Shown here one piece after another: positions 4,371 through 45,879 of a DNA stretch of 45,879 nucleotides (positions are counted from its first letter, which is position 1; the number at the start of each line of letters is the position of its first letter). The DNA comes from a virus: UHGV virus genome UHGV-0132371. One strand, given 5' to 3'. The notes beneath the pieces are model-generated. The model made no database searches and was not told the DNA's origin. It saw only the letters and a program-made list of their open reading frames with translations. The position numbers and the translations under genes were made by a program.

Positions 4371-5288
4371 TTATCGCTTGGCTTCGCCGCCGAGAGAGGT
4401 TGTTAATCCGTTAATGAGAGAGATAAGCTCGCCGGTCATCAGAACAAAGTCAGCGTCGAACCGCTGAGCCGCATCCTCACGGTCGATATCGTCGTTTTGT
4501 TCTGTAATCTCATTAGAGAACTTAAGGCGTTTGATGCTGCCGTCATCGCAAAGAACGAACTGAATGCGCTGTTGCCAGTCGATAGACAGCTTTGTAACTA
4601 CTTTGCCAGCTTCCAGATGCACATGAATTTCGTCACTGACCAGAGTCTGTTTTTTAAAGCGTCCAATACCGCCATCTTCAAGAATAGCTTTCAGTTCGGC
4701 TTCATCACCCAGGCCAAAGCCAGCAGGCGCACTACCGGAACGAACCCATTCGGTCATAGTTAGTTCGATCGGCGTTTCCATAGTCAGCGGTACCACCGGG
4801 AGAGAACCGAGAGTTTTACGAAGCAGGGCCAGTGAGTCTTCGGCACGTTTAGCGCTGGCTGCATCAACCATGATCAGACCGTCGGTGACGTTGATCCACA
4901 AACTAACAGTCGAGTTTTTGGAGAACGCCCGAGGAAGCAGGGAGTGCAACACTTCATCACGCAGCGAATCTTTCTCAGTTTTTTTGAGGCGACGCCCCTG
5001 ATCGGATTCCAGACGCGACACACGCTTGCGCAGTTCTTCAGCAATGACAGGAGATGGCAGTATTTTTTCTTCCCGGCGAATAACCAACAACACTTGATTA
5101 TTGACAGTGTGATGCAAGCGATCTGACAGCTGACCAAGTGGTGATACCCAACCGGTTTTTGCCATATCCTGGCTACCGCATGGAGTGAAGCGAAATAGTT
5201 CAAGCTGCTGTTCCAGCTCTTCCTGGTTGATGGTGAAATCGCGACTAATGCGATACACCAACATATTTTTGAAAAACGGATTGTTCAT
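4371..5288 (-). CDS. rdgC: Recombination-associated protein RdgC homolog
   Basis: 305 aa, alignable by eye along its whole length with E. coli RdgC ([11 protein letters not shown]..., [37 protein letters not shown]). Confidence 0.85.
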
Positions 5289-7103: not shown

Positions 7104-7838
7104 TTAAAGTCGATTATATTTAATTGACTCATGAATCAATGCCTTACCCATGACATAAAGCTGATCCTGATTCGCCTCATTGATGTACCACTTTTCATAT
7201 GCAGAGTTATCAGACAGAACAGCGAGCTTGTCACCTTGCATCTGTAGGCGCTTAACATGAAACGTCTTACCGTATACGAAAGAGTAAACACCGTCGGTCT
7301 GGAAGTGACGAACTGAGATGTCGACGAATAGTCGATCACCAGAAACGAGGGTTGGTGACATACTGTCGCCGTTAACAGTCATGACCTTCACATCTTCTGG
7401 ATCGCGATTTCCAAAAAGCACTCGGGCATGTTCAGTCGTGAACTCAATGGCGTACAAGACTTCAACATAGTCAGAAAGCATGTAGGTGCCAGGTCCAGCA
7501 CTGACAGATAAATCCAGAACTTCAACGCGATAAACATCCTGCTCTGGCTTATTAACCATGCGTTTCACTTCCCCTGTATCTGTTGGCTCACCAACACCGT
7601 ATTCCAGCCATTCGGCACGTACACCAAGTACTTTACTGAGAGCCACTATTTTCTGACTGTCCGGTATGGCCTGGGCGTTGAACCACTTCCAAACTCCAGG
7701 TGTAGTGATCTCCACCCCGGCTTTATTAAGCAGGTCTGCAAGGTTTTTGTTTCGTCCCCGACCAGTTAATCCAGCAAGTTGACAAACTTGCAGCAGCCTA
7801 GTCGTGAAACCTTCTTTCGTTTCGTCTCTCTTAACCAT
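7104..7838 (-). CDS. cI: CI-like prophage repressor (N-terminal HTH, C-terminal S24 LexA-type peptidase domain)
   Basis: VNGDSMSPTL serine motif and downstream HVKRL lysine; divergent from a Cro-like gene. Confidence 0.85.
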   Translation of the reverse strand: MVKRDETKEGFTTRLLQVCQLAGLTGRGRNKNLADLLNKAGVEITTPGVWKWFNAQAIPDSQKIVALSKVLGVRAEWLEYGVGEPTDTGEVKRMVNKPEQDVYRVEVLDLSVSAGPGTYMLSDYVEVLYAIEFTTEHARVLFGNRDPEDVKVMTVNGDSMSPTLVSGDRLFVDISVRHFQTDGVYSFVYGKTFHVKRLQMQGDKLAVLSDNSAYEKWYINEANQDQLYVMGKALIHESIKYNRL

Positions 7839-15824: not shown

Positions 15825-15852
15825 GCCCTGACCTGAAAATCAGGGCTTTTTT
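15825..15852 (+). terminator. Rho-independent terminator
   Basis: GCCCTGA...TCAGGGC hairpin followed by TTTTTT. Confidence 0.6.
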
Positions 15853-16021: not shown

Positions 16022-17074
16022 ATGAAAAATACTGTAAATATAAACAGTGTTGAGTTAGTCAACGCTGATAGCCTGCAATACATCGCCACTCTCCCTGATA
16101 ACTCCATTGACCTGATAGTCACGGATCCGCCGTACTTCAAAGTGAAACCAAACGGCTGGGACAACCAATGGAAAGGGGATGATGATTATCTTCGATGGCT
16201 TGATATGTACCTCGCACAATTCTGGCGAGTGCTTAAACCTGCCGGCAGTCTTTATCTTTTCTCCGGTCACCGCCTGTCGGCAGACATTGAGATCATGATG
16301 CGTGAGCGGTTCAACGTCCTGAACCACATCATCTGGGCTAAACCGTCTGGCCGCTGGAATGGCTGTAATAAAGAGAGCCTTCGCTCTTACTTCCCTGCAA
16401 CAGAGCGCATCCTGTTCGCTGAGCATTACCAGGGGCCGTATAAACCAAAGAGCGACGGGTACGCTGAGAAGGGAAGCGAGCTGAAGCAGCATGTAATGAC
16501 TCCCCTAATTTCTTATTTCCGGGATGCACGTGAAGCGCTTGGCATATCCTCAAAACAAATAGCCGATGCGACTGGAAAGAAGAACATGGTGTCTCACTGG
16601 TTCAGCGGTAGCCAGTGGCAATTACCGAATGAATCCGACTACCGGAAACTTCAATCCCTTTTCACGCAGGTAGCCATCGAAAAGCACCAGAACGGCGAAC
16701 TGGCAACACCACACCACCAGCTGGTGGCCCTGTGGCATTCGTTAAATCGCAAGTATTCAGAGCTGCTCGAAGAGTACAAATCGCTTCGGCGGCATTTCTC
16801 TGTTTCCGTATCCGTTCCTTATACCGACGTCTGGACACATAAACCCGTTCAGTTTTACCCAGGTAAACACCCATGCGAAAAACCCGCTGACATGTTGCGG
16901 CAGATCATCAACGCCAGCAGTAAGCCTGGTGATGTGGTGGCTGATTTCTTTATGGGGTCCGGTTCGACCGTGAAAATCGCGCTGGAACTTGGCCGCCAGG
17001 CTATCGGCGTTGAACTCGAGGAAGACAGGTTTAGCCAGACGGTGGAGGAAATAAGGGCGTTAACAGGGGAGTAA
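16022..17074 (+). CDS. Orphan DNA methyltransferase (beta-class N6-adenine/N4-cytosine; DPPY before FxGxG)
   Basis: 350 aa with TDPPY near the N-terminus and DFFMGSGST near the C-terminus; no adjacent restriction endonuclease. Confidence 0.8.
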   Translation: MKNTVNINSVELVNADSLQYIATLPDNSIDLIVTDPPYFKVKPNGWDNQWKGDDDYLRWLDMYLAQFWRVLKPAGSLYLFSGHRLSADIEIMMRERFNVLNHIIWAKPSGRWNGCNKESLRSYFPATERILFAEHYQGPYKPKSDGYAEKGSELKQHVMTPLISYFRDAREALGISSKQIADATGKKNMVSHWFSGSQWQLPNESDYRKLQSLFTQVAIEKHQNGELATPHHQLVALWHSLNRKYSELLEEYKSLRRHFSVSVSVPYTDVWTHKPVQFYPGKHPCEKPADMLRQIINASSKPGDVVADFFMGSGSTVKIALELGRQAIGVELEEDRFSQTVEEIRALTGE

Positions 17075-42301: not shown

Positions 42302-42894
42302 TGATACCTGTTTTTGATGAAAATGGGCTGGCTACAGTGCCGGGCGATATGCGTTGTTTTTATTATAATGCAGTAACGTATGAATATACCGGCTGGTCTG
42401 ATGAATATATTAATACTGGCGTAAGTATACCCGCCTGTTCCACTGGTATTGACCCGGGCGAAAACATCCCGGGAAAAGTGGCAGTATTTACGGGTAAGGG
42501 ATGGAGCCATGAAGAAGACCATCGCAATGAGACCGTTTACTCAACTGAAAATGGCGCAGCTGTTACAGTGGATTATATCGGTGCCATCAAAGACGGTTAT
42601 GTCACGCTTTCACCGTTAACGCCATACGATAAATGGGATGGTGAGAAATGGGTGACGGATACCGAGGCACAGCATAGCGCCGCAGTAGAAGCGGCAGAAG
42701 CACAGCGCCAGTCGCTGATTGATGCTGCAATGGCTTCCATCAGTCTGATTCAACTGAAATTACAGGCTGGGCGGAAGCTGACGCAGCCAGAAAACACCCG
42801 ACTTAACGCTGTGCTGGATTACATTGACGCGGTGACGGCAACAGATACCAGCACAGCGCCGGACGTCATCTGGCCTGAACTGCCGGAGGCGTAG
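42301..42894 (+). CDS. Tail fibre assembly protein (Tfa)
   Basis: C-terminal LNAVLDYIDAV...DTSTAPDVIWPELP motif typical of Tfa chaperones. Confidence 0.7.
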   Translation: MIPVFDENGLATVPGDMRCFYYNAVTYEYTGWSDEYINTGVSIPACSTGIDPGENIPGKVAVFTGKGWSHEEDHRNETVYSTENGAAVTVDYIGAIKDGYVTLSPLTPYDKWDGEKWVTDTEAQHSAAVEAAEAQRQSLIDAAMASISLIQLKLQAGRKLTQPENTRLNAVLDYIDAVTATDTSTAPDVIWPELPEA

Positions 42895-43309
42895 ACCATT
42901 CAATATCTGGCGCACCGGAAGTATCGACCAGTTCCAGTGCGTCCAGATAATCCAGCCACAAATTATATTGCGCCAGTTCCTCACCTTTCAGACGACCAAT
43001 TGATGCTTTACCTGGCCATTGTTTACTGTTTATGTATTCGTTGGCCTGGTTAATCAATTGCTGCTTTTTAGTTTCGGCTGATGCAATTTGTTCTTCACGT
43101 GTTGGTGGAGGAATATCTGCCCATGCAGGCAGTCCATCCTCTCCGACACATCTGTATTTTCCTTCTGGTGGTGTATCATAGAAATATTCCCTGAAAATTA
43201 CTTCGTCTATATCAACACCTTTTTCTTCAGGCCATTCACCTTTTTCAACATAAAGAGACTGAAGTTCGTAAGGATATGCCAGGTTGTTTACGTACAGATA
43301 TTTCATCAT
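42866..43309 (-). CDS. Alternative tail fibre assembly protein (Tfa')
   Basis: C-terminal NLWLDYLDALELVDTSGAPDIEW motif; opposite orientation inside the invertible segment. Confidence 0.65.
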   Translation of the reverse strand: MMKYLYVNNLAYPYELQSLYVEKGEWPEEKGVDIDEVIFREYFYDTPPEGKYRCVGEDGLPAWADIPPPTREEQIASAETKKQQLINQANEYINSKQWPGKASIGRLKGEELAQYNLWLDYLDALELVDTSGAPDIEWSTPPAVQAR

Positions 43310-43662
43310 TACCAGCCCTTAGCGAAAAACGCACCACCTTCAAGACCATAATTGCAGTGAGCTATGAAGCCGGTAGTGCTCCAGTTGGTCGCCCCCCACA
43401 TATTCCCGCCCCCGAAACCACCATCGCACACAATTACAATGCCCGGTGTCTGTGTAAATGGAATCGGGAATGAAACATTGGCGGATACAGGCCCGTGTTC
43501 ACCAGGAAAACTAATTCGTCCCCACTGTTCAATTGAACCATCTGGCATTTTTCGCCAGCCTGAACCTGATGCATATGATGACATATCAGGTATCTGATTT
43601 TCCCCTGTTCCCACATTCCGTTTTGCCGCTTCTCCCAAACCAACCTTTTTTATAACCATCAA
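43309..43662 (-). CDS. Alternative tail fibre C-terminal segment (promoterless; expressed after inversion)
   Basis: The frame stays open through the right crossover site and encodes KKVGLGE, matching KNLGLGE at the left site in the expressed gene. Confidence 0.55.
43629..43655. other. Right crossover site of the invertible tail-fibre segment
   Basis: CTTCTCCCAAACCAACCTTTTTTATAA; inverted copy of the left-site core. Confidence 0.55.
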
Positions 43663-43714
43663 AAATCTGGTGATGCTTCGCCGTTTCTCCTGTTTTCATA
43701 ACAGGAGAAATCCC

Positions 43715-44278
43715 ATGATTTACGGTTATGCCCGAGTATCAACAAACCACCAGGACACTGAATTGCAACTAACGGCGCTCAAGTCAGCGGGTTGTGAGAA
43801 AATTTTTGAAGAGCATGCCAGCGGGAGGAAATCGAATCGGCCGGTTCTAAAACGGCTCATCGCCACTATGCAGCCGGGGGATGAACTGGTGGTCTGGAAG
43901 CTGGACAGGATAGGCCGCAACGTTCTGCATGCGCTGTTGATGTTCCAGCAGTTACAGGAAAAGGGTATCAACTTCCGCAGTATTACCGATGGCGTGGATC
44001 TCAAAACAGCCAGCGGCCGCTATAACTTTCGTAACATCCTTTCCGCAGCACAATATGAATCTGATCTTAATAGCGAACGTACCTTAGCAGGGCTGGCCGT
44101 AGCCAGGGCAAAAGGGCGAGTTGGTGGGCGTAGACCGAAGTTTAGCGACGAGCAGTGGCAACAGATGGGAGCGCTCATAGCGGCAGGGAAATCACGGCGT
44201 TATGTTGCACGTATCTATAACGTTGGGCTATCAACCCTATATAAACGATTTCCTGTTACTGGCATTCAAACGAAATAA
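43715..44278 (+). CDS. Serine recombinase, DNA invertase of the Hin/Gin/Pin/Cin family
   Basis: MIYGYARVSTNHQ catalytic N-terminus; C-terminal HTH; AGGAGAAA RBS (track ORF starts upstream at 43670). Confidence 0.85.
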   Translation: MIYGYARVSTNHQDTELQLTALKSAGCEKIFEEHASGRKSNRPVLKRLIATMQPGDELVVWKLDRIGRNVLHALLMFQQLQEKGINFRSITDGVDLKTASGRYNFRNILSAAQYESDLNSERTLAGLAVARAKGRVGGRRPKFSDEQWQQMGALIAAGKSRRYVARIYNVGLSTLYKRFPVTGIQTK

Positions 44279-44421
44279 TTTAAAAGCAATTTAAAGAGTT
44301 ATTTGTCTAATGTTGGAAGCCGCAGCCACGTCGTATGCAAGAACGTGCTGCGGCTGGCTGGCGAACTTTCGATAGTGCGAGTATTGAATGATTTCCAGCC
44401 GTTACCGATTTTACGTGTTAA

Positions 44422-44670
44422 TTAGTGAACAAACCACTCGTCAGCAGATTCCCAGGTATCTTTCAGAGTCTCCTGAACAAAAGTTTTTGCAGAATCCTTA
44501 TCTGCGGTGCGTGTAACAGAAAGGCCATCGTTGCTGGTGGCTTTTACGATCACCTCTACATCGTCATAACGTTTACTGATGCGTCGGGTTAATTCTTCCT
44601 TTAACGCATCCACAGCACCGGTTGGCATTTTAGTCATTTTTTCTTTGGCTATGCAGATTTCAATACGCAT
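44422..44670 (-). CDS. dinI: DinI-like DNA-damage-inducible protein
   Basis: 82 aa resembling E. coli DinI (MRIE..IAK...GA.DAL..EL.RRI...[11 protein letters not shown]). Confidence 0.75.
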
Positions 44671-44683
44671 AAAAGTCCCTCTA

Positions 44684-44731
44684 TACTGTGTTTGTATACA
44701 GTATTGTTTTTAACTGTATTGATAAACAGTG
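44684..44731. promoter_or_regulatory. Two tandem LexA boxes (SOS operators) upstream of dinI
   Basis: TACTGTGTTTGTATACAGTA (44684..44703) and AACTGTATTGATAAACAGTG (44712..44731), both CTGT-N8-ACAG. Confidence 0.65.
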
Positions 44732-45829
44732 TCAAGAGATCTTATTTCTGCTCCTTTGGAGCTCTTCAAAACGATTATGTAAAGATTTTGGATACAGTTC
44801 GGTATATACCTGCCATAGCACGTTTAATGAACGATGCCCTGTAACCTGGGCTACTTCCTCAATACTAAAACCAGCCTCAAATAAGCGACTTGCCCCTTCT
44901 CTACGCAAATCATGGTATCGCAGATCCTTAATACCTAATTTGCTTCTTACCCTCTGAAATCCCGCAGTAACAGAAGTGCTGTTATATGGAAAAATGAATT
45001 CCGATTTTTGGGGCTGTCGTTGGACGATATCCCAGGCTTCCCCAAGCAAGGCTACTTTCATGTGGTTGCCTTCCTTTTTGCGTGGATCTTTCCTGTCTCT
45101 TACGAGTATAGATTTTTGTTCCTGGTCGAGATCTTCCCATCGTAACCGGCATACTTCTCCGATTCGCATACAGGACCACACAGAAAATTTGAGGATATCA
45201 ACGAACGGAATTTTTGAGCATTTATGAGTAGATCGTTGTTGAAGGCCTTCAATGAGCATGTCCAGTTCATCAGATGCTGGTCTACGATTACGACGGTTTG
45301 ATTTACCAATTAAACCAAGTTTAAGTAGATATGGACGAGCGGCTTTTGCTGGGTTTGATGTGTAATTAATTCCATATACAGGTTTGGCAGCATCCAGAAC
45401 ACTGCCAAGATAACTAACATCGTGGCTAACTGTAGCTGGACCTGCACCAGCGTTGTTTCTTAGCCTGCAATGTTCAATTACGTCATTTTCTGTCAGTTCA
45501 GATAGTTTGATCGCGGAGATGTCACTATCCATAAGCAGTTCCAGCACATATCTTTTAGTACGGCCTGCTTTACCTCCGGCATTTGGGTCATTTAAATATT
45601 TGTGTAGTAAGTCACGGACTGTAAGTCCGTCAACTGCATTTGATGATGGAATGCCATATAGATCTAATTCCATCACTTTCTGTGTGCCCCATGTTTTGGC
45701 ATGAGCATGTTTAGGGAATGTTTTGCTTTCCCTGTAAGTGATAACACCTTTTTCTTTGATAATCACATTACAGCGATAGCGTGGTGTGCCATCGGATTTT
45801 AGTCGTTTCTCTATGTTATAGTACGCCAT
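44732..45829 (-). CDS. int: Tyrosine site-specific integrase
   Basis: 365 aa; C-terminal catalytic motifs (HDLRREGASRL, VTGHRSL, YTELY); GAGG RBS. Confidence 0.85.
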   Translation of the reverse strand: MAYYNIEKRLKSDGTPRYRCNVIIKEKGVITYRESKTFPKHAHAKTWGTQKVMELDLYGIPSSNAVDGLTVRDLLHKYLNDPNAGGKAGRTKRYVLELLMDSDISAIKLSELTENDVIEHCRLRNNAGAGPATVSHDVSYLGSVLDAAKPVYGINYTSNPAKAARPYLLKLGLIGKSNRRNRRPASDELDMLIEGLQQRSTHKCSKIPFVDILKFSVWSCMRIGEVCRLRWEDLDQEQKSILVRDRKDPRKKEGNHMKVALLGEAWDIVQRQPQKSEFIFPYNSTSVTAGFQRVRSKLGIKDLRYHDLRREGASRLFEAGFSIEEVAQVTGHRSLNVLWQVYTELYPKSLHNRFEELQRSRNKIS

Positions 45830-45879
45830 TACACGACCTCGTTATTTCGGGTTCCCATAAAACGTGGGAACCTGTGCGG

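Follow-up and report, generated by a model that had tools for sequence, protein, structure and literature searches.

A dinI-like gene with two predicted LexA operators in a putative mobile cassette of a dusA-type lambdoid prophage

In Salmonella, the Gifsy prophages have dinI–antirepressor (gfoA/gftA)–irsA operons, and LexA directly represses their dinI homologue, which DNA damage induces (PMC3121763, PMC8072944). Non-polar deletions of the dinI homologues in Gifsy-1 and in Gifsy-3 did not significantly affect induction (PMC3121763). Tum of coliphage 186 is the product of another LexA-controlled phage gene, and its C-terminal half is DinI-like (PMC3121763). LexA ChIP was shown at the dinI promoter of Klebsiella (PMC10907235). 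Cryo-EM of the RecA-DinI complex showed that L13, L21, W71, W77, and F78 of E. coli DinI form a hydrophobic pocket for F203 of RecA and that E24, E69, and D76 form an acidic patch (PMC9926225). LexA, UmuD, and CI-type repressors such as lambda CI use the same groove of the RecA filament (PMC9926225). A phage DinI-like gene was linked to the later emergence of quinolone resistance in one comparative study (PMC10575684).

Here we analyzed a dinI-like gene in the virus genome UHGV-0132371, whose whole stretch of 45,879 nucleotides is called the window below. The feature is of a known kind; it is common, it is annotated in close relatives, and its kind has been shown experimentally in Salmonella prophages. 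The best explanation for the locus, which we regard as highly probable, is an SOS-regulated 'moron' cassette in a lambdoid prophage that integrates at dusA, with a product that would tune RecA-dependent cleavage. The features of the locus are listed in Table 1.

Table 1 Features of the dinI-like locus and of related genes in the window.
Feature	Position	Strand	Description	Basis
Tyrosine integrase gene, dusA-targeting type	45829..44732	−	Same strand as dinI, upstream	Pfam Phage_integrase, E = 7.5e-21
Predicted −35, TTGACA	44730..44735	−	Perfect hexamer; contains the integrase TGA; upstream edge of the cassette	
Promoter-distal LexA operator (predicted), AACTGTATTGATAAACAGTG	44712..44731 (core 44714–44729)		Fills the −35/−10 spacer; abuts the integrase stop codon, ending one base before it	
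Predicted −10, TAAAAA	44707..44712	−	Without the usual T at position 6	Read from sequence
Promoter-proximal LexA operator (predicted), TACTGTGTTTGTATACAGTA	44684..44703 (core 44686–44701)		13 nt from the ATG; over the predicted transcription start	
Shine-Dalgarno sequence, GAGGGA	44676..44681	−	5 nt before the dinI ATG	Read from sequence
dinI-like CDS	44670..44422	−	82 aa; ATG 44670..44668, stop TAA 44424..44422	ORF list and homology
dinI 3'UTR	44355..44421	−	Roughly 67 nt; conserved across contexts; invariant core CATTCAATACTCGCACTATCG at 44390..44370	
Terminator hairpin	44319..44354	−	GC-rich; downstream edge of the cassette	Fold
CI-like repressor gene	7104..7838	−	Peptidase_S24 domain, Ala-Gly site, GDSM serine, VKR lysine	
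Full-length rdgC homologue	4371..5288	−		Pfam, E = 8e-116

The dinI-like gene and its predicted LexA operators

The original prediction had named the ORF that follows the integrase gene a dinI homolog, and profile and structure searches confirmed this assignment. The 82-aa product matched Pfam DinI (PF06183) over profile positions 1–63 of 63 (E = 1.1e-19; score 70.9 bits, cut-off 24.2), PHROG 189 'RecA filament binding protein DinI' (E = 5.7e-31), and the E. coli DinI structures 1GHH/7YWA (E = 3.7e-13). In a pairwise alignment with the 81-aa DinI of K-12, 38 residues were identical. The alignment with the E. coli DinI structures covers the eight RecA-contact positions, of which five are identical (E. 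coli to phage: L21 to L23, E24 to E26, W71 to W72, W77 to W78, and F78 to F79) and three are conservatively replaced (L13 to M15, E69 to D70, and D76 to E77). Among relatives with 9–74 nucleotide differences, synonymous changes made up 41–67% of the changed codons, which is consistent with selection on the protein.

The phage protein scored 73 bits against the NCBIfam equivalog for chromosomal DinI (NF007893), which has a cut-off of 111 bits; therefore, its activity may differ. The protein is thus a member of a paralogous subfamily carried by phages, for which RefSeq uses the name 'DinI-like family protein', and not the host gene. A 55-aa ORF lies antisense to dinI on the plus strand of the window, and phi80 annotates a similar one. 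Neither a family match nor any other support was obtained for this antisense ORF, and the stop-free antisense stretches of relatives range from 45 to 68 aa.

The integrase stop codon TGA (44734..44732) and the dinI ATG are separated by a 61-bp gap that holds both predicted operators. On the minus strand, the gap and its edges read 5' to 3' TTGACA-CTGTTTATCAATACAGT-TAAAAA-CAA-TACTGTATACAAACACAGTA-TA-GAGGGA-CTTTT-ATG. The predicted promoter has the layout TTGACA-17-TAAAAA, and the proximal box begins 3 nt past the −10 hexamer. A simple consensus promoter scan did not call TTGACA-17-TAAAAA because it requires T at position 6 of the −10 hexamer. We assigned the promoter on the basis of the annotation of phage mEp460, whose GenBank record places a promoter at exactly the same bases, and of conservation across genera.

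CTGT-N8-ACAG matched exactly at five places in the whole 45.9-kb window, where 0.61 would be expected; in 100 shuffles, a count of five was never attained. We also scored every 20-mer with a symmetrised heterology-index-style (HI-like) matrix rebuilt from 29 E. coli LexA sites; the absolute scores are approximate. On this scale, on which the reference sites range from 1.9 to 11.9, the proximal box scored 4.88 and the distal box 5.89; the operators of recA, dinI, and sulA scored 4.5, 4.7, and 5.0, respectively. Only three 20-mers in the window scored 10 or lower, and all three were below 6, while 0.002 per window were expected at 6 or lower (500 shuffles). The pattern enrichment and the operator scores, both set against shuffles, exclude chance as the origin of the boxes.

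The claim that two CTGT-N8-ACAG boxes abut the integrase stop codon was thus correct to the base, and their reading as SOS boxes agrees with the exact pattern and with the strong-operator scores over the predicted promoter. As for membership in the LexA regulon, the locus has operators of fitting pattern and score, and these overlap the predicted promoter. LexA-dependent expression of the gene is predicted from its sequence, from conservation, and from the experimental precedent of the Gifsy dinI homologues (PMC3121763, PMC8072944). We rejected the boxes as operators of the phage's own repressor, since the cI–cro intergenic region has TTAA-rich palindromes and not CTGT-N8-ACAG.

A third strong LexA-type box, TACTGTAAATATAAACAGTG, which is unrelated to the dinI locus, is located at 16030–16049 and had the best HI-like score in the window (4.46). 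It lies inside codons 3–9 of a DNA methylase gene (16022..17074, plus strand; Pfam N6_N4_Mtase, E = 1e-42). With this gene a new transcription unit begins, preceded by a terminator-like hairpin at about 15826–15850. Only four phage records match this stretch. The methylase may be SOS-controlled.

The layout with two operators was conserved. Both boxes were present in all 62 IMG/VR loci having upstream sequence, including loci with unrelated sequence upstream of TTGACA, and both are kept in PhiR12_2_star and Stx2_EH2201. In diverged loci of the same DinI subfamily from Erwinia, Mixta, and one mislabelled record (56–72% protein identity), TTGACA is fused to the distal box and the second box is kept; the distances from the boxes to the ATG are 13–15 and 40–42 nt despite changed box sequences, and those in the window are about 13 and 41 nt. 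The −10 sequences of relatives are A/T-rich (TAAAAT/TAAATA/TAAATT) and lie 17–18 bp after TTGACA, and their Shine-Dalgarno sequences are GAGGGA, GGAGG, or AAGGAG.

Across Enterobacterales, 73 of 80 dinI-family loci have at least one good box, and the chromosomal-type dinI genes of this set typically have only one, at a distance of about 19 nt from the ATG. The two phage operators are 27–28 bp apart from centre to centre, or about 2.7 helical turns, and we infer that this spacing reflects the geometry of the promoter rather than face-to-face cooperativity. As a modest new point, two operators at fixed positions are a conserved hallmark of the phage-borne DinI subfamily, whereas chromosomal dinI usually has one. 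From this hallmark, SOS induction is predicted to be tighter and to come later.

Phage JLK-2012 (L090) has a copy of the cassette that is decaying. The proximal box of this copy is disrupted (CACTTGTACATAACCACAGTT) and its distal box weak (HI-like score, 9.75), and the conserved Trp equivalent to W71 of E. coli DinI is replaced by Arg. Enterobacterial-type dinI cassettes also occurred in three records titled Chryseobacterium sp., Candidatus Saccharibacteria MAG, and Vagococcus sp. (L096, L097, and L122, respectively), which probably represent contamination or mis-binning and not real hosts.

Cassette borders, integrase, and attachment site

We read the promoter, the dinI-like gene, its 3'UTR, and the terminator hairpin as one mobile cassette spanning about 44317–44739. 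Homology to other phages, including mEp460, starts at about 44317 and stops just past the −35 hexamer, and the sequence upstream of TTGACA is unrelated between the contexts in which the cassette occurs. The GC content of the cassette is 0.43 compared to 0.51 for the window. The cassette thus has its own promoter and terminator, sharp borders in varied contexts, and an atypical composition, as phage morons do. The cassette occurs in many lambdoid and Stx phages, and its neighbors differ between them: in Stx phages it is located near attR beside T3SS effector genes, and in mEp460 between the tail fibre and integrase genes. Of 5426 complete E. coli genomes, 1407 carry at least 80% of the cassette.

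Copies of the terminator hairpin differ by compensatory changes in the stem, and most relatives have a TTTTTCTTTTT tail after the hairpin. In the window, the U-tract is missing (UUCC...), since it has been replaced by the junction with the invertase module, which comes immediately after the hairpin. An invertible tail-fibre segment occupies 42866–44278 and includes a Hin/Pin-type serine invertase gene (43715–44278, plus strand). Beside the invertase gene, the minus strand carries alternative genes for the tail-fibre C-terminus and for assembly, at 43662..43309 and 43309..42866. This invertase/tail-fibre module meets the dinI cassette exactly at the terminator hairpin.

The integrase gene belongs to the dusA-targeting family, which was described previously (PMC4482086); the assignment follows from its position beside dusA in lysogens. 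Two lysogens were examined; in both, 88 bp separate the start codon of the integrase gene from dusA, and the two genes are divergent. The full 2.28-kb stretch of integrase, dinI, and invertase is contiguous in 65 E. coli genomes. In mEp460, the attP region, which is a look-alike of the dusA 5' end with a crossover (divergence) point, is found upstream of the integrase gene. Of this mEp460-type dusA-mimic region, about 235 bp are missing between the end and the start of the window (45830–45879 and 1–50, compared with L001 4063–4299), and in mEp460 the missing stretch joins the upstream side of the integrase gene to the first early gene. The window is phage or prophage sequence, trimmed to just inside the att region. 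The contiguity of the block in lysogens and the dusA mimic upstream place the att site upstream of the integrase gene, beyond the end of the window.

These data bear on the suggestion in the original prediction that the region right after the integrase gene is a candidate attachment site. In lambda, attP lies just downstream of int, and the stretch downstream of dinI is homologous to a sequence that is annotated as attP, by similarity only, in HK633 (L088 2505–2585), although HK633 has a different, IntS-type integrase. Against this suggestion, the gap stays internal in lysogens, as given by the contiguous block beside dusA, and is not split between the prophage ends; the attP region of mEp460 is on the other side of the integrase gene; and the 61-bp region is found in other phages without an adjoining integrase gene. 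We rejected the gap as attP, and the chance that it is or contains the attachment site is close to nil. That dinI lies against the integrase stop codon results from the point at which the cassette and the integrase module were joined.

The same junction could be read as a control point for the integrase. LexA bound at the 3' end of the integrase gene would act as a transcriptional roadblock, so that the mRNA is cut before the stop codon and the protein is tagged for degradation, and the integrase level would rise on SOS induction. The two genes are co-oriented with no terminator between them, and the distal operator begins 1 nt past the integrase stop codon. Lac repressor acting as a roadblock at the 3' end of lacI is a known precedent. 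However, the cassette with two boxes occurs in other phages without an upstream integrase gene, which argues that the juxtaposition arose from module joining. LexA gating of integrase expression is accordingly improbable, and we consider it weaker than the RNA-based idea described in the following section.

The 3'UTR and a possible regulatory RNA

The core of the 3'UTR of the dinI-like gene was invariant even where the coding sequence was only 70% identical, and copies of the element (44317–44479 in the window) are kept in lambda-like phages and on the K-12 chromosome where dinI is absent. The 3'UTR and hairpin without dinI were found in the lambda b region, HK75, HK630, HK446, and mEp234. The element is also located between ykgJ and ecpE (K-12, L087 3001–3152) in nearly all E. 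coli chromosomes. The ykgJ–ecpE copy is unannotated, and because the match reaches about 58 nt into the dinI coding sequence, it looks like a remnant of a prophage or of dinI.

Just 5' of the terminator hairpin, 17 nt on the mRNA strand (44370..44354) form a perfect antisense to codons 21–26 of E. coli dinI (nt 61–77 of the K-12 gene). BLAST over a small search space gave an E value of about 1e-4, and the sequences on either side are unrelated. The dinI genes of other genera match the 17-mer at only 6–14 of 17 positions. Among 88 copies of the element, the 17-mer is perfect in only 30; the others match at 12–16 of 17 positions, the commonest alternative variants at 15. The perfect match may result from lineage drift, and we treat it as unexplained.

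From these features, the 3'UTR could give rise to a small regulatory RNA that pairs with the host dinI mRNA; in Klebsiella, DinR is released from dinI in this manner (PMC10907235). On SOS induction, the prophage of this lineage would then silence the host DinI and supply its own. The invariant core, the persistence of the element without dinI, the perfect 17-nt antisense stretch, and the Klebsiella precedent favor such an RNA. On the other side, the copies without a perfect 17-mer carry 1–5 mismatches, and at the level of the family the match is about 15 of 17, which could be due to chance. Furthermore, the 3'UTR has no similarity to that of Klebsiella DinR, its pairing with the ftsZ leader was no better than that of shuffled sequence, and an Rfam scan of 44000–45879 gave only two hits, both sub-threshold (CssrB at 22 bits with a cut-off of 76, and a miRNA family). 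Release of the 3'UTR as a regulatory RNA is thus unlikely, and silencing of host dinI by it is equally so.

Two related readings of the 3'UTR were rejected. A DinR-like sRNA targeting ftsZ does not fit, since the 3'UTR is unrelated to Klebsiella DinR and its duplex energy with the ftsZ leader falls within the shuffle distribution. An inverted remnant of dinI does not fit either, since only the 17-mer (LAGELS) matches and its flanks are indistinguishable from shuffles (p = 0.40 and 0.94); in this test of the 3'UTR, no Pfam match was obtained, and BLASTP aligned six residues only.

Proposed regulation and comparison with known systems

The original prediction placed dinI next to a LexA-like repressor system. 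A CI-type repressor with a Peptidase_S24 domain does exist in the window, but it is about 37 kb away from dinI; across the att junction, the distance is about 7–8 kb. Cro-like and CII-like genes are also present in the window. With the Peptidase_S24 domain and the Ala-Gly, GDSM, and lysine motifs, the CI-like repressor can probably cleave itself.

These properties bear on whether the locus is an induction module of the Gifsy type, a LexA-controlled operon in which dinI is followed by the gene of a small antirepressor, and this antirepressor inactivates a repressor unable to cleave itself. PHROG 189 also takes in longer Tum-like proteins, which would suit such a module. However, the region between the dinI stop codon and the invertase gene (44279–44421) has no minus-strand ORF of at least 20 aa that could encode an antirepressor, the conserved 3'UTR and the terminator hairpin directly follow dinI, and the phage repressor carries the S24 motifs of a probably self-cleaving protein. 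We therefore rejected a dinI–antirepressor operon, and an induction module of this type is very improbable here.

An SOS-regulated phage dinI homologue remains the main interpretation and is well supported. In a lysogen, host LexA dimers bound to both operators, one in the spacer and one at the transcription start, would keep the dinI-like gene tightly off, as the sequence and its conservation suggest. After DNA damage, RecA would be activated and LexA would cleave itself, and both operators would have to clear before transcription. The dinI-like gene would probably be turned on later than single-box host genes, or at higher damage. Its product would bind the groove of the RecA filament and stabilise the filaments, and at high dose it would compete with the substrates of self-cleavage. 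Such stabilisation and competition could tune cleavage of the CI-like repressor and hence the threshold of prophage induction and the SOS output of the host. Given the lack of a significant effect of the Gifsy-1 and Gifsy-3 deletions, any effect of dinI on induction may be small.

The window also encodes a full-length RdgC homologue (Table 1). RdgC is a second protein that modulates RecA, so that the phage has two candidate RecA modulators. In the lambdoid prophages of E. coli and Shigella, Stx phages included, DinI-like genes belong to the commonest accessory genes. If the product alters RecA filaments, each copy adds a damage-induced modifier of SOS output, and prophage and toxin induction as well as mutagenesis could be affected. 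The instance itself adds little that is new; its value is that of a clean and well-delimited example.

Among known loci, the closest is that of mEp460 (JQ182728, mEp460_021), which has the same integrase–dinI junction at 98% identity and in which dinI is annotated as DinI-like. SKA5 and many Stx-converting phages have cassettes 89–99% identical to that of the window. In the records of mEp460, SKA5, and the Stx phages, the LexA operators are unannotated. The cassette of the window abuts the DNA-invertase/tail-fibre module and has no U-tract, whereas that of mEp460 abuts the side tail fibre gene.

The dinL gene of phi80 (JX871397), like the gene of the window, is a DinI-family gene between the tail-fibre and integration regions, and its TTGACA is likewise fused to a CTGT-N8-ACAG box that fills the spacer and is annotated as a LexA site. 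Unlike the window, phi80 has a single operator, 38 nt from the ATG, and the dinL product is only 31% identical. The dinI gene of E. coli (b1061), which is LexA-regulated, shares with the phage gene the fold family, the C-terminal WESAD(D/E)WF helix, and the RecA contacts, but its single operator lies 19 nt from the ATG, and its 3'UTR is different.

Compared with the Gifsy operons, dinI of the window is monocistronic without an antirepressor gene, it has two operators instead of one, and the phage repressor is probably self-cleaving. As for Tum of coliphage 186, the protein of the window aligns to positions 71–149 of the 151 positions of PHROG 189 and is without the N-terminal antirepressor half of Tum.
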